Source: a virus. From it: 64,000 nucleotides of DNA. This document shows, one piece after another, positions 48,033 to 56,739 of this stretch; the stretch's first letter is position 1, and every line of letters begins with the position of its first letter. The DNA lies in the IMG/VR virus record IMGVR_UViG_3300042673_001035, positions 1-64,000 of that record. One strand, written 5' to 3'. Both the position numbers and the translations under genes were made by a program. The notes under the pieces were generated by a model. It was not told the origin of the DNA. It ran no database searches and was given only the letters and a program-made list of their open reading frames with translations.

Positions 48033-49832
48033 TTATATTATTTTTTTTCCATATTGAGGTTTTGGAATATCGTTTAAGTCTTCAAATAAGATAATAGGTT
48101 CTTCAATGGTTTCAATCTCATTTGAGATTATAGTGTATGATTGTGATCCTGTTTCTTGTTTTTCTTTTAATTCTAAATATAATCCTCTATTATAGATTGA
48201 ATATGGTATTCCTATTCTTTTAAATGTCTCCTCAGCTTGTTCAATTCTTCTTAACCTATCCATTGGTGTATTCCACTTTGTTGTGAAATTAACACCATTC
48301 TCATATTCTAAATATTGTTTCTCCACATCTCTCCACTTTACTAATAGAGTTTGATGTAATAAAAATACGGAACAGGTTACTATTTCTGCCATACAATCTC
48401 TAAATTCCTCTACAAAGTCTAAAGTTTTTTGAAAATCTTCATCGGTTTCGTTTAGATATCCAACAATGATTTGCATACCAAACAACAATGGATATTCAAA
48501 TTCAGTTCCCTTATTTTCTTCATTTACCTTTCTTACATTTTCAAAAATTTCTCTCACACCTTGAACATCGGTGTATTTTTTCATATGTTTAAGAACTGGT
48601 TCGGAATAAGATTCGAATCCTGTAATAAACTTTGTTAGTCCTGCTCTACGATATAATCTTATAGTTTCTATATCTCTCATTTGAGATTGTAGTCTAACAT
48701 TACCACCGATATTAATATCTAATCCTCTTTCGATAATTTTTTCACACAATTCTTTTAACCACTTTGGATTACCATTGATAATTGAATCGTGACAAAAGAA
48801 ATACTTCTTTCCTTTTGCAACCCATCCTTCTAATTCCTCTAACACATTTTCAACGGTTCTATATCGGTATTCAGGTATATAATCCGGTACTGAACAAAAC
48901 GAACAACGATAAGGACAACCTCTACTCATTGTAATAGGTTTAGTGTCCTGATAAACTGACTTATAATAAAAATTATCTTCTAAAGAACTATAATCCGGAA
49001 TAGGTAATGCATCCATTGGAATATTTGCTCTCATTTTATTGTGGATAAAAATACCATTTAATTGCCAAATTAATCCAGGTATAGACATTAAGGACTCCTC
49101 ACTCCAATCTGACTTAAGTATTTCTACAAATGTCATCTCACCATCACCTCTACTGATTGCATCGATGAAAGTATATTCGTTTGTTTTATAATTTGAATTG
49201 GGTAATCTACCAAAGTCTAACACTTCAACACCATTACCACCAATTAAAATTTTAACCTCTGGATATTTTTCTTTTACTAATTTTGCAATTGCAAGTGTTG
49301 CATCTATATTACCATCGATAATACTAAATCCTAAAAATTTAGGCTTTGCTTTCTCTAAATATCTACCAACGAATCCGTATGCAATATCATATGTTTCCTG
49401 AAAATTATATAATAGATGAAACTGACTTTGTTTGGAGTATGTATTAAATAAATTGAAAAACTCACCTTGCTTATCCGGTGGATTTAAAAAGAAATAGTCA
49501 ATTACTGGGTCAATGATTGCAACCCTTAATTCGGGTTCATATTTGTCTATCCAAGACTTTAAACCAACTATGCCGGAATAATAACCTGATTCATTGATAT
49601 TAGGAACTTGTAATAACAAACAATCTTGTTCTTCTATATCTTGAAAATGGAATTTATGTTCTATCTCCAATCCTTTGCCTTTCTCTGCAAAAACAGTTTG
49701 ACGCATATATTGTAGTAAATCGACTTTGATGTCAAATACTTCAACACCACTTTTCATTTGGTCATCTACTCTATTCTCAACTTTTTGAATTTGACTTTCA
49801 ATATCAGGACTAATGATTTCGTCAATTTGCAT
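48033..49832 (-). CDS. Cobalamin-binding (class B) radical SAM enzyme
   Basis: ILIGG, RGDGE, LPIPDY, SRGCPYRCSFC, GFESYS, IIVGYLNET. Confidence 0.9.
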   Translation of the reverse strand: MQIDEIISPDIESQIQKVENRVDDQMKSGVEVFDIKVDLLQYMRQTVFAEKGKGLEIEHKFHFQDIEEQDCLLLQVPNINESGYYSGIVGLKSWIDKYEPELRVAIIDPVIDYFFLNPPDKQGEFFNLFNTYSKQSQFHLLYNFQETYDIAYGFVGRYLEKAKPKFLGFSIIDGNIDATLAIAKLVKEKYPEVKILIGGNGVEVLDFGRLPNSNYKTNEYTFIDAISRGDGEMTFVEILKSDWSEESLMSIPGLIWQLNGIFIHNKMRANIPMDALPIPDYSSLEDNFYYKSVYQDTKPITMSRGCPYRCSFCSVPDYIPEYRYRTVENVLEELEGWVAKGKKYFFCHDSIINGNPKWLKELCEKIIERGLDINIGGNVRLQSQMRDIETIRLYRRAGLTKFITGFESYSEPVLKHMKKYTDVQGVREIFENVRKVNEENKGTEFEYPLLFGMQIIVGYLNETDEDFQKTLDFVEEFRDCMAEIVTCSVFLLHQTLLVKWRDVEKQYLEYENGVNFTTKWNTPMDRLRRIEQAEETFKRIGIPYSIYNRGLYLELKEKQETGSQSYTIISNEIETIEEPIILFEDLNDIPKPQYGKKII

Positions 49833-53898: not shown

Positions 53899-54129
53899 TT
53901 AAGCTTTTGCTTTGGGTGGACTCTGCGTGAATAACTCTTTAAGGTATTCTTCCTCATCCTCCATTTGTTCAGCGGTCATCTCATTGTATCTATCTAACAA
54001 TGCAATTGCGGACCTGATTTCACTTAACTGCTCACTAGCAGCCCACTTCGGTTTGCCGTCTTGCAGACCTTTAATCTTCTTCATCAATACTATCTCGTCT
54101 TGTTTTAACTTCTTAATTGCGTAGTCCAT
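53899..54129 (-). CDS. Hypothetical protein
   Basis: 76-aa ORF. Confidence 0.55.
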   Translation of the reverse strand: MDYAIKKLKQDEIVLMKKIKGLQDGKPKWAASEQLSEIRSAIALLDRYNEMTAEQMEDEEEYLKELFTQSPPKAKA

Positions 54130-54535
54130 CTTTATACTTTTTATTTATCTTATCTTTAATTTGTTTCCACACTATCGGTGTATACTTATCTTCGTTTCTT
54201 CTTGCTTGTCTCTCATACGGGTTTCTACTATATGAACCGGGGTACTTATAGTATTTCGTTCTTATTGGTTGTAGTTGGTGTGTCCATTCGTGTATACACG
54301 TATTGATTAACTCTCTCACATCACTACATTGGTCCCAGTATATCCATACCTCATTGTCGTCCGCGTCATATGCACCACAATCGGTGTCATATCCTTTCAC
54401 TACGGACCAGATAGGGTCAAACTTCTTTCGTTTGTTTACTCCCATATTCGTGCGACACCATCTCAGGACCATATTTGCAATTCGCACTGCAGGTTCTCTA
54501 CCTAATTTTGTTATAGGCGTTTTTAAATATATCAT
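54113..54535 (-). CDS. Zincin-like metallopeptidase domain protein (start revised to 54535)
   Basis: CIHEWTH...NPYERQAR; the upstream extension in the track crosses a terminator. Confidence 0.7.
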   Translation of the reverse strand: MIYLKTPITKLGREPAVRIANMVLRWCRTNMGVNKRKKFDPIWSVVKGYDTDCGAYDADDNEVWIYWDQCSDVRELINTCIHEWTHQLQPIRTKYYKYPGSYSRNPYERQARRNEDKYTPIVWKQIKDKINKKYKDGLRN

Positions 54536-54555
54536 ATTCGTTTTAATATGGTTAT

Positions 54556-54586
54556 AAAAAAAGTGGTACTCTCGGGGTACCACTTT
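54556..54586 (-). terminator. Intrinsic terminator downstream of tRNA
   Basis: AAAGTGGTAC...GTACCACTTT hairpin followed by a T tract. Confidence 0.85.
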
Positions 54587-54665
54587 GTTAACTATCAAAG
54601 TTTTTCTTGTAAAGTAAATCGGAGAATAACCTATTTGTAAAGTAACCGAGATAACTTTGATATAG

Positions 54666-54764
54666 AGCGGTGAGCTAGATTTGAACTAACCCCTTTAGTC
54701 TGGATGACTATCGTGCAACCCATGGGCTTTTACGTCCGTGAGGTAACCATTACACTTTCACCGC
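54666..54764 (-). tRNA. tRNA-Gly(TCC), atypical, with 28-nt D-loop insertion
   Basis: Acceptor GCGGTGA/TCACCGC with U73; D-stem GTGT/GCAC; anticodon arm TAGT-CATCCAG-ACTA; T-arm GTTAG-TTCAAAT-CTAGC; no encoded CCA (CTA). Confidence 0.8.
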
Positions 54765-54796
54765 TTCATTGGTACGAACTAATAGTCCGTACTAAA

Positions 54797-55120
54797 TTAT
54801 TTTACTTCAACAACTTCAGCTGAAGGTGTTTGTAAAGTATCAACTGTTTGTGTTGTAGTTGTATCTACTACTGCTGTTGTTGAATCAGTTGTTGCTTCAG
54901 TTGAAGCAGAACCACAACTAGCCAAACCTAATACTAATACTAAAGACATCGCACCTACTTTTGCTTTATTCAAAATAGATGATAATCTTTTTGCGTTGTA
55001 AAGAGCTTTAGTTGTATAAAAATCTCTCTTTTGTTCACTCAAAGTCGTACTCGCTTCGTTTAAGTTGTTTACTAATTCAGTTACTTGATAGTTCACTTTT
55101 GTTGCAATTTTCTTTGCCAT
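54797..55120 (-). CDS. Putative small lipoprotein with N-terminal extension
   Basis: Internal KAKVGAMSLVLVLGLASC lipobox followed by a Thr/Asp-rich tail. Confidence 0.6.
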   Translation of the reverse strand: MAKKIATKVNYQVTELVNNLNEASTTLSEQKRDFYTTKALYNAKRLSSILNKAKVGAMSLVLVLGLASCGSASTEATTDSTTAVVDTTTTQTVDTLQTPSAEVVEVK

Positions 55121-56421: not shown

Positions 56422-56739
56422 TTAATGTGTTGAATTTAATTCATAATGAAACTTTTGTAATTGTTTCGTTTCATATTCGTGAGCGGATTTCTTTCCTCTA
56501 ATTACTTTGAGGATAAACAAATCATAAACTGACTCACTATGTTCTCTCATATCGTTGTATAAGGACCAGTTTTTGTTTTCTTTTCTCGCTCGACTAAAGT
56601 GTTTTTGTAATCTTAATTTCGCAGAGTAGTGGAAACGTCTACCTATTGCGGCAGTAATACCAATATAACTCTTACCATTTTCAGTATTGACTATCTCATA
56701 TACTACATGGTTTCTATCGTTTCGTTTCTTTCGTACCAT
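56422..56739 (-). CDS. Stand-alone GIY-YIG nuclease-domain protein
   Basis: VVYEIVNTENGKSYIGIT...RLQKH...E...LN. Confidence 0.75.
   Translation of the reverse strand: MVRKKRNDRNHVVYEIVNTENGKSYIGITAAIGRRFHYSAKLRLQKHFSRARKENKNWSLYNDMREHSESVYDLFILKVIRGKKSAHEYETKQLQKFHYELNSTH

Follow-up and report, generated by a model that had tools for sequence, protein, structure and literature searches.

Bacterial-type and phage tRNA-Gly genes with UCC or CCC anticodons (Rfam RF00005) share a cloverleaf and a bacterial glycine identity set consisting of U73, G1-C72, C2-G71, C35 and C36 (PMC9976931). Departures from this plan are known or proposed in several systems. It has been hypothesized that phage tRNAs carry anticodon-loop changes that make them insensitive to host tRNases (van den Berg et al. 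2023, PMC10264068), while archaeal and algal tRNA genes may carry non-canonical introns in the D-loop, which are removed at a bulge-helix-bulge motif by a splicing endonuclease (PMC3241643, PMC3695527). In engineered aptamer–tRNA fusions in E. coli, only the variable-loop fusion was stable, whereas a fusion in the D-loop of tRNA-Tyr, placed between positions 16 and 18, was not detectable (Masuda et al. 2017, PMC5397188). Non-proteinogenic tRNA-Gly species of staphylococci appear to serve as glycyl donors for FemXAB, and minihelices (PMC4695843) and tRNA-like processing elements such as mascRNA or tRNA 3'-trailer sRNAs are further examples. Here, we analyzed a tRNA-Gly-derived element of a large freshwater phage located in a window of 64,000 nucleotides (positions 1 to 64,000 of IMG/VR record IMGVR_UViG_3300042673_001035).

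The first-pass annotation had described the element as a tRNA-Gly(UCC) with A33 and a 28-nt hairpin inserted in the D-loop, and this description was confirmed. The features of the locus are summarized in the table below.

Table. Features of the locus in window coordinates.
Feature	Coordinates	Strand	Description
Whole tRNA-Gly-derived element	54666..54764	minus	99 nt; 71-nt body without the insert; 4-nt variable loop; U73 at 54666
Acceptor 5' strand and position 8	54764..54758; 54757	minus	7-bp acceptor stem with no mismatch; A8 at 54757
D stem 5' strand and D-loop stretch	54745..54755	minus	D stem strand 54755..54752 (4-bp stem); conserved 7-nt stretch with G18 G19, 54751..54745
Inserted hairpin	54717..54744	minus	28-nt imperfect hairpin between G19 and the 3' strand of the D stem (D-loop beta region, positions 20-21)
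D stem 3' strand	54713..54716	minus
Anticodon arm	54695..54711	minus	Stem 54711..54707 with 54699..54695 (4 pairs plus an A.A mismatch at 27-43); loop C-A-U-C-C-A-G, 54706..54700; A33 at 54705; anticodon UCC at 54704..54702
T arm	54674..54690	minus	5-bp stem, loop UUCAAAU
Acceptor 3' strand	54667..54673	minus	Likely mature 3' end just after 54666/54665
Upstream hairpin	54772..54792	minus	No U-run; between the 5' end of the element and the stop codon (54799..54797) of the upstream gene
Structured trailer	54556..54665	minus	P1 stem (54662..54653 with 54602..54593) enclosing a conserved core (motif at 54631..54607); intrinsic terminator (54586..54560 plus a U-run)
Downstream gene	54113..54535	minus	140 aa, HExxH motif
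Upstream gene	54797..55120	minus	107 aa, lipoprotein-like signal ending in a Cys lipobox

The minimum-energy structure obtained with RNAfold was this cloverleaf with the insert as an imperfect hairpin, although the energy alone was not significant (z = -1.75; 9 of 200 shuffles folded as well). Standard detectors did not recognize the element. ARAGORN found 0 genes in the window, 0 under 5 of 5 option sets on the excised region, including intron and low-threshold options, and 0 in 6 of 6 registers after removal of the insert, so that the 71-nt body is itself below threshold. Rfam gave 0 matches at gathering score and no tRNA among 10 weak matches at E<=10 over positions 54500-54900, which were only to unrelated sRNAs, so neither the element nor the trailer belongs to a described family. 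The element was also absent from the 16 RF00005 matches in the genome. A covariance model built from 29 relatives scored it at 114.7 bits as the only full-length hit in the 116,680-bp genome; it should be noted that the element is one row of the model's alignment, and the score is thus partly by construction. Searches of 50,697 phage records with the locus (blastn) and the downstream protein (tblastn) gave no match, and the T-arm/acceptor pattern had 0 hits in 185,579 bacterial species genomes. A gapped pattern, which was too strict, yielded only 5 known loci, and in a further search 3 of the 4 new loci were chance matches.

The downstream gene, which had a weak match to PHROG 87, metallo-protease (E = 3.1e-4), and no Pfam family, was used as a synteny anchor and identified 56 syntenic viral loci at 47-99% identity; the upstream gene had no family match. 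Of the 51 loci with upstream sequence, 22 held the hairpin form, 1 a truncated copy, 13 an insert-less cloverleaf, 13 a minihelix and 2 nothing. ARAGORN called 11 of the 13 insert-less cloverleaves as tRNA-Gly UCC or CCC (10 of 12 short hits and the locus L089), and the element aligned with such genes, located at the same genomic position in related jumbo phages, over its whole length. The two insert-less relatives not called by ARAGORN (L128 and L133) look degenerate, so decay does occur at this locus in some lineages. The hairpin-bearing clade, however, does not show random decay. Among the 22 hairpin loci chosen by synteny, diversity was 0.0 in the acceptor, 0.05 in the T arm, 0.051 in the D stem/loop and 0.107 in the hairpin, compared with 0.364 at codon position 3 of the adjacent gene and 0.28 in the upstream 60 nt; outside the anticodon arm, the element was thus 3 to 7 times less diverse than neighboring third codon positions. 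Meanwhile, diversity in the anticodon stem was 0.45.

A D-loop insert was present in 71 of 71 complete elements found through their 3' half (28 nt in 51, 26 nt in 18, 27 nt in 1 and 12 nt in 1). These metagenome loci were selected by an exact 24-nt match in the T arm and acceptor, and their invariance there is by construction. Length changes lie in the apical loop of the hairpin, and the base pair switches A-U to U-A; the clade has only two main hairpin haplotypes, so compensatory events in the hairpin are few (1 pair with changes on both sides, 2 pairs often unpaired). The hairpin is single-copy in the genome, and its origin as a mobile palindrome was therefore rejected. In 29 of 29 distinct sequences, element positions 10-18, G18 G19, the T-loop and the glycine identity set were invariant, and position 8 was A. 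Across 30 pairs, 95% of cells were standard, and 0 of 500 shuffles reached this value. The D stem and T arm were paired in 100% of cells; in the anticodon stem, 4 of 5 pairs showed changes on both sides and 95.9% of cells were paired, whereas the other stems were invariant and say nothing for or against covariation. Only 24 of 71 anticodon loops were canonical 7-nt loops with U33; 30 had 8 nt, 9 had A33 and 8 had C33, while CCAG was present in 71 of 71. A33 is thus one state of a polymorphic loop, the insert defines a whole clade, and relatives reduce the gene to a minihelix, none of which the first-pass annotation could know.

Contigs from 3 of 4 lake metatranscriptome runs spanned the element with the insert (depths 42.6, 5.1 and 104.9), whereas the contig of the fourth run broke inside the insert where a relative's hairpin variant begins; no joint skipping the insert was reported in any of the 4 runs. 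A contig of 581 nt from one run (X5) joined the element to upstream sequence of a relative. One contig of this run (depth 104.9) ended at 54665, followed by one non-templated C and the Illumina adapter, while 104 of 104 hairpin-bearing loci encode CTAT, not CC, after U73. This is a hint of CCA addition, but it rests on one contig in one run, and the final A cannot be told from the adapter's first letter. It should also be noted that all RNA evidence comes from assembled contigs of RNA libraries, which can contain DNA. A CCA-adding enzyme (PF01743) was found in 0 of 3 phage records, and CCA addition would be done by the host.

The element is followed directly by the conserved structured trailer (fold z = -3.05). 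The P1 stem was missed by RNAalifold on a MAFFT alignment because its covarying arms were misaligned; when tested per sequence, it formed in 25 of 25 distinct trailers with many different arm sequences (cognate duplex mean -10.7 kcal/mol against -5.9 for non-cognate pairs). In the terminator, 9 of 12 pairs showed changes on both sides. The core occurs once in each of 43 viral contigs and once in the 116,680-bp genome, and its role as a promoter was rejected on the latter ground; pairing of the core with the acceptor 5' strand, considered by eye, was also rejected, since the core is invariant while the acceptor changes. In bacterial genomes, the only form of the core searched, a one-base-longer variant seen in some relatives, had 0 hits. 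Other hairpins of different sequence were seen by eye at the place of the upstream hairpin in L089 and two further loci (L025 and L021).

The element is considered a real, selected and expressed paralogue of the phage's own tRNA-Gly(UCC) that retains its D-loop hairpin (confidence of about 0.9). The functional reading is much more tentative (probability of about 0.4). According to this reading, the element is transcribed with the upstream gene, released by RNase P and 3' trimming, receives CCA and is charged by the host GlyRS through U73, G1-C72 and C2-G71 (plus C35 and C36 where an anticodon arm exists), although there is no direct evidence of aminoacylation and no host is known. The selected function would lie in the glycine-type acceptor/T-arm half, whereas A8, the hairpin beside the elbow and the mostly non-canonical anticodon loop would make the element a poor or unused decoder. 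This is in line with the 9 distinct minihelices, which have no anticodon arm, yet all keep G1-C72, C2-G71 and U73 while pairs 3-7 differ, and with the two ordinary tRNA-Gly(UCC) genes in the phage's tRNA cluster, which would cover decoding; the invariance of these nucleotides could, however, reflect ancestry or processing needs. The least certain step is the use of the element, most likely as a stand-in substrate that absorbs or escapes host factors aimed at tRNA-Gly. A more far-reaching and unlikely possibility is that the locus is a new kind of phage non-coding RNA module, in which a glycine-type acceptor/T-arm unit, appearing as a bare minihelix, an ordinary cloverleaf or a cloverleaf with a D-loop hairpin, is joined to a structured trailer with a terminator in front of early genes; charged but kept off the ribosome, it would serve either as a decoy for host weapons aimed at tRNA-Gly or, together with the trailer, as a sensor that sets read-through into the downstream genes.

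Of the interpretations offered by the first-pass annotation (a glycine donor for a modification pathway, a nuclease-evading tRNA or decoy, or a mini-intron), the first two remain possible, whereas the last is not supported. Among the alternatives to the main reading, the one that survives best, although it is less likely, is a working decoder of GGA/GGG whose anticodon loop (positions 32-34 and loop length) changes quickly to escape host anticodon nucleases, with the hairpin as a tolerated or protective decoration at a solvent-exposed part of the D-loop. The ordinary tRNA-Gly orthologues, most of the insert-less ones with fully canonical loops, the 24 canonical loops in the clade, the pairing of the anticodon stem through full sequence replacement, the invariance of C35, C36 and A37 with variation confined to the 5' side of the loop, and the invariant G18 G19 and T-loop, with which the elbow may form, fit this reading. 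However, 47 of 71 loops lack the canonical form, A8 would remove the U8-A14 pair, relatives keep the locus without an anticodon, the phage already has two ordinary tRNA-Gly(UCC) genes, and the engineered D-loop fusion, albeit at a different site, was not stably expressed.

It is doubtful that the element is mainly an RNA-processing handle, in which the acceptor/T-arm half is kept as a substrate for RNase P and RNase Z, cleavage giving the upstream mRNA a hairpin-protected 3' end and the trailer RNA a defined 5' end, while the lower half is free to grow, change or be lost. The minihelix is the only part conserved across all forms, the element is always followed within 3-8 nt by the covarying trailer and terminator and is preceded by a hairpin without a U-run, an RNA-library contig joins the upstream gene and the element, and RNase P, RNase Z and CCA-adding enzyme probably accept minihelices. 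Nevertheless, this does not explain purifying selection on the D arm and hairpin, the maintained pairing of a fast-changing anticodon stem, the invariant CCAG, or why G1-C72, C2-G71 and U73 stay fixed while pairs 3-7 change.

A glycyl donor for a non-ribosomal reaction, such as cell-wall or peptide modification, is improbable: although the identity set is invariant while decoding features are relaxed, and staphylococci appear to offer a precedent, FemAB (PF02388) and Acetyltransf_6 (PF13480) matched 0 of 3 phage records searched, including one 100%-complete 238-kb relative, with the host unknown. A mini-intron is very unlikely. The insert is bounded by a 4-nt direct repeat, its removal leaves a 71-nt body, and a complete relative encodes an RNA ligase (PF09414); however, the insert is carried by RNA-library contigs of 3 of 4 runs, in one case together with the mature-looking 3' end, the hairpin is conserved in sequence, no bulge-helix-bulge arrangement was seen by eye in the fold, and the tRNAs are of the bacterial type (U73 in Gly, C1:A72 in the initiator), although contigs can drop rare variants and a minor spliced form is not excluded. 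A decaying pseudo-tRNA or chance resemblance, suggested by the lack of detector calls, A8, A33, the A.A mismatch, the unremarkable fold energy and the two degenerate relatives, is contradicted by the low diversity, the hairpin in 71 of 71 complete copies, the covariation and the presence in RNA libraries.

Among bacterial-type tRNAs, the variable arm seems to be the only natural site of a large stable expansion, and a D-loop hairpin conserved across at least 29 distinct sequences and retained in RNA would show that this loop can carry a folded module next to an intact elbow. The locus offers a natural series of ordinary tRNA, hairpin tRNA, 8-nt-loop tRNA and bare minihelix, which separates what the top half of a tRNA does for a phage from what decoding does. 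Since ARAGORN and Rfam miss the gene entirely, such tRNAs are invisible in standard annotation. No description of such a tRNA was found in the full-text literature searched, supplementary files excluded, nor in the parts examined of a 2020 review of non-canonical natural tRNAs, in which the word "phage" does not occur (PMC7609411).

Compared with ordinary tRNA-Gly, including the phage's own gene at 99208-99279, to which it is homologous along its whole length, the element shares the cloverleaf order, the identity nucleotides, G18 G19 and the T-loop but differs in the 26-28-nt D-loop hairpin, A8 instead of U8, a purine at position 48 opposite A15 and a mostly non-canonical anticodon loop. As in the phage tRNAs proposed to evade anticodon nucleases, variation is concentrated in the anticodon loop while amino-acid identity is kept; here, however, the changes include the near-universal U33 and the loop length, are polymorphic among close relatives and come with a structural insertion elsewhere. 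The UCC anticodon, Gly identity, features that would disfavor ribosomal use and the presence beside ordinary tRNA-Gly copies resemble the staphylococcal species, which appear to lack G18 G19 and a hairpin, whereas G18 G19 are retained here. The archaeal and algal introns also interrupt the D-loop, but the insert studied here stays in RNA-library contigs, is conserved as a hairpin and is found in a phage with bacterial-type tRNAs. In contrast to the engineered D-loop fusion, the natural hairpin lies after G19, leaving G18 G19 intact. Finally, relatives at this locus consist only of a coaxial acceptor/T-arm helix with U73, similar to tRNA minihelices, and the element, like tRNA-like processing elements, lies between an mRNA and a structured trailer, whereas in the window the full cloverleaf plus hairpin is kept under selection.

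The window belongs to a 116,680-bp IMG/VR virus record rated as 52% complete by CheckV; it is about 30% G+C, and nearly all genes are located on the minus strand. The record contains a cluster of 15 (according to ARAGORN) or 16 (according to Infernal) tRNA genes, including two tRNA-Gly(UCC) genes, one of which has an A.C mismatch in the acceptor stem and shares its anticodon arm with the syntenic tRNA of a related viral locus (L131), while a gene for a calcineurin-like phosphoesterase lies next to the cluster. One tRNA-Met of this record has a C1:A72 end, which is presumably the mark of a bacterial initiator, and a relative of 238,219 bp, rated as 100% complete, has 26 tRNA matches; it was thus concluded that this is a jumbo phage of bacteria. 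No cultured relative was found. The coordinates of the features considered are summarized in the table below.

Coordinates of the tRNA-like element, its surroundings and other features of the record
Feature	Coordinates	Strand
tRNA-like element, 99 nt	54764..54666	minus
Extra 28 nt in the D-loop	54744..54717	minus
A33	54705	minus
Anticodon UCC	54704..54702	minus
Stop codon of the upstream lipoprotein-like gene	54799..54797	
Hairpin without a U-run	54792..54772	
Structured trailer, 110 nt	54665..54556	minus
Motif of the trailer core	54631..54607	minus
GIY-YIG homing-endonuclease-like gene	56422-56739	minus
Gene for protein with radical SAM domain	48033-49832	minus
Calcineurin-like phosphoesterase gene (outside the window)	95636-96397	
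tRNA gene cluster (outside the window)	96,829-100,496	
tRNA-Gly(UCC) with A.C mismatch (outside the window)	99208-99279	

The sequence of the element corresponded exactly to the first-pass annotation, in which it was described as a tRNA-Gly(UCC) with a 28-nt hairpin inserted in the D-loop and with A33. It includes a perfect 7-bp acceptor stem, A8 and a 4-bp D stem, and the D-loop begins with a stretch containing GG, followed by the extra nucleotides bounded by a 4-nt direct repeat. The anticodon stem has four pairs and an A.A mismatch, the loop is C-A-U-C-C-A-G, the T arm is normal, and position 73 is U. RNAfold returned this cloverleaf with the insert as an imperfect hairpin; however, the energy was not remarkable (z = -1.75). 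Neither ARAGORN nor Rfam called the element under any of the settings tried, even after in silico removal of the insert. Consequently, the case based on the sequence itself is weak, and the evidence comes from relatives.

Exact-pattern scans with parts of the element revealed it in viral contigs and in 59 metagenome contigs. Together with the window, 74 loci contained the 3' half, of which 71 were complete, and 71 of 71 carried a D-loop insert (28 nt in 51, 26 nt in 18, 27 nt in 1 and 12 nt in 1), representing 29 distinct sequences. The two-base difference in length was located in the apical loop (GUAAAA against GAAA), the bulged base varied, and the pair at the foot of the hairpin switched between A-U and U-A. 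The hairpin follows G19 and abuts the 3' strand of the D stem, i.e., it occupies the part of the D-loop whose length varies naturally, leaving G18 G19 in place. It should be noted that these loci were selected by an exact match in the T arm and acceptor, and invariance in these regions is therefore by construction.

An unbiased set of relatives was obtained by synteny, using the downstream 140-aa HExxH protein, which identified 56 viral loci at 47-99% identity; a covariance model of the element was run over 55 of them, and the loci without a match were inspected. Upstream sequence was present in 51 loci, among which 22 contained the hairpin form, 1 a copy truncated by the contig end, 13 an insert-less cloverleaf of 70-74 nt, and 13 a minihelix of 32-42 nt, whereas in 2 loci nothing was recognisable. 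ARAGORN called 11 of the 13 insert-less cloverleaves as tRNA-Gly (UCC or CCC), while the other two (loci L128 and L133) looked degenerate. The insert-less tRNA-Gly genes of loci L093, L088 and L130 have U8, and those of L093 and L088 encode CCA; their 10-nt D-loop lacks the GG pair that normally contacts the T-loop, while their anticodon and T arms are almost identical to one branch of the hairpin clade, so they may be its precursor or a hairpin-loss product. The minihelices (loci L097, L098, L101, L103, L105, L106, L110, L111, L112 and L114-L117; 9 distinct sequences) are located about 100-170 nt upstream of the protein match (at 2501 or at the position found for the individual locus) and consist of a 7-bp acceptor stem, a 3-5-bp (in one type 8-bp) T stem, a 7-nt T-loop and U73, with no D or anticodon arm. 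Alignment of the hairpin form, the insert-less forms and the phage's own cluster gene for tRNA-Gly(UCC) with the A.C mismatch showed them to be homologous from end to end. Thus, the element is a positional orthologue of real tRNA-Gly genes.

Nucleotide diversity among the 22 hairpin loci chosen by synteny was 0.0 in the acceptor strands, 0.05 in the T arm, 0.051 in the D stem and loop and 0.107 in the hairpin, whereas it was 0.17 in the anticodon loop, 0.28 in the variable loop and 0.45 in the anticodon stem. The corresponding values for the downstream gene were 0.174, 0.115 and 0.364 at codon positions 1, 2 and 3, respectively, and 0.28 for the 60 nt upstream. The hairpin and the upper half of the molecule are held far below the neutral level. 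The anticodon stem turns over at least as fast as silent sites, yet 95.9% of its cells remain paired, and 4 of 5 pairs show changes on both sides. This pattern rules out random decay for this clade.

A33, noted in the first-pass annotation, is not a peculiarity of this genome but one state of a polymorphism. Among the 71 complete elements, the most frequent loop was the 8-nt CAUACCAG (30), followed by CUCCCAG (14; U33, anticodon CCC), CUUCCAG (10; U33, anticodon UCC), CAUCCAG (9; A33, the form of the window), CCUCCAG (7; C33) and CCCCCAG (1; C33). Only 24 of 71 loops were canonical, while the 3' side, CCAG, was present in 71 of 71. C33 (four loci) and 8-nt loops (two loci) were also found in insert-less orthologues (L096, L107, L108, L132; L128, L133), and loss of the canonical U33 loop therefore arose repeatedly at this locus, independently of the hairpin. 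C35 and C36 belong to the bacterial glycine identity set together with U73, G1-C72 and C2-G71 (PMC9976931), and all of these are invariant here; the minihelices keep G1-C72, C2-G71 and U73, while pairs 3-7 differ.

Twenty-three runs recorded as RNA, mostly labelled lake water or freshwater, contained 6-20% of the sampled words of a 601-nt stretch around the element, and four of them, carrying lake-water or freshwater labels, were analyzed at the level of contigs only. Contigs of three runs spanned the element with the insert in place (depths 42.6, 5.1 and 104.9 for runs X1, X2 and X5, respectively), whereas the contig of the fourth run (X3) stopped inside the insert, where the hairpin variant of a relative begins; no joint skipping the insert was reported. 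The X5 contig ended at 54665, followed by one letter that differed from the genome and then by the Illumina adapter, which in the sense of the RNA reads as U73-C-C followed by the adapter, whose first letter is A. All 104 of 104 hairpin-bearing loci encode CT at this place, so the second C is not templated, as would be given by CCA addition after 3' trimming, although this is one contig in one run, and RNA libraries can contain DNA, which could not be excluded without a silent control stretch. The same contig runs on into the upstream gene of a relative, and the X1 contig runs on into the trailer, so longer transcripts (or DNA) are present too.

Upstream of the element, the stop codon of a lipoprotein-like gene is followed by a hairpin without a U-run, 7 nt before the element. 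Downstream, the trailer forms a second conserved RNA-like structure, in which a covarying stem, P1, forms in 25 of 25 distinct relatives with more than ten different arm sequences (the cognate duplex mean was -10.7 kcal/mol against -5.9 for non-cognate pairs). P1 encloses a nearly invariant ~55-nt core and is followed by an intrinsic terminator, in which 9 of 12 pairs show changes on both sides and which lies about 20 nt before the start of the HExxH gene. The copy of the window folds with z = -3.05. The core was found once in the genome and once in each of 43 viral contigs, and matched no Rfam family; the layout resembles a riboswitch or attenuator, or a tRNA 3'-trailer sRNA. In six of the minihelix loci (L097, L098, L101, L103, L116 and L117), a second hairpin just upstream of the minihelix carries in its loop a related copy of the trailer-core motifs (GGTTATTCTC and GTTACT) in the reverse order, and these phages therefore have core-like elements on both sides of the minihelix. 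In relatives of the L014-L020 type, two tandem copies of a 15-nt motif were found 10-60 nt upstream of the element; its central 8 nt are the exact reverse complement of the CTTTACAA in the trailer core, so a leader-trailer pairing or a shared protein site is possible, although the window itself lacks these copies.

The neighbouring proteins gave no tRNA-related family, and neither a CCA-adding enzyme nor a Fem-type transferase was found in the three related records, whereas the complete relative has an RNA ligase next to its tRNA cluster. Elsewhere in the window, a free-standing 105-aa GIY-YIG homing-endonuclease-like gene was identified among small early genes (Pfam E = 2.5e-6; PHROG 7168 E = 6.8e-11), as well as a 599-aa protein with a radical SAM domain (E = 1.9e-18) and a sub-threshold match to the B12-binding domain (24.9 bits, below the curated cut-off of 32.1).

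According to these data, the element is a selected tRNA-Gly derivative that is expressed, as judged from contigs of RNA libraries, and keeps a D-loop hairpin in its RNA. We infer that it is matured like a tRNA and charged with glycine, and that its conserved role lies in the glycine-type acceptor/T-arm half, since this half is the only part shared by all forms at the locus, two thirds of the hairpin clade have loops that should decode poorly, and the phage has two ordinary tRNA-Gly(UCC) genes. The subsequent use of the charged or uncharged RNA has not been shown, but a stand-in for host factors aimed at tRNA-Gly seems the most likely; for instance, the TacT toxin recognises U73 and G71 (PMC9976931). 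This interpretation as a whole is tentative (probability of about 0.4). The strongest alternative, although unlikely, is a working decoder whose loop escapes anticodon nucleases, in line with the hypothesis of PMC10264068. A processing handle for the flanking RNAs is still more doubtful, and a glycyl donor has little support. A mini-intron, which the first-pass annotation had also proposed, and a pseudogene are both very improbable.

In full-text literature searches and in the parts consulted of PMC7609411, PMC5397188 and PMC7590224, no natural bacterial-type or phage tRNA with a hairpin in the D-loop was found. The element is related to the well-known tRNA-Gly, from which it differs, among other features, in the hairpin carried by its D-loop. 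The D-loop interruptions described in the literature found are archaeal or algal introns.
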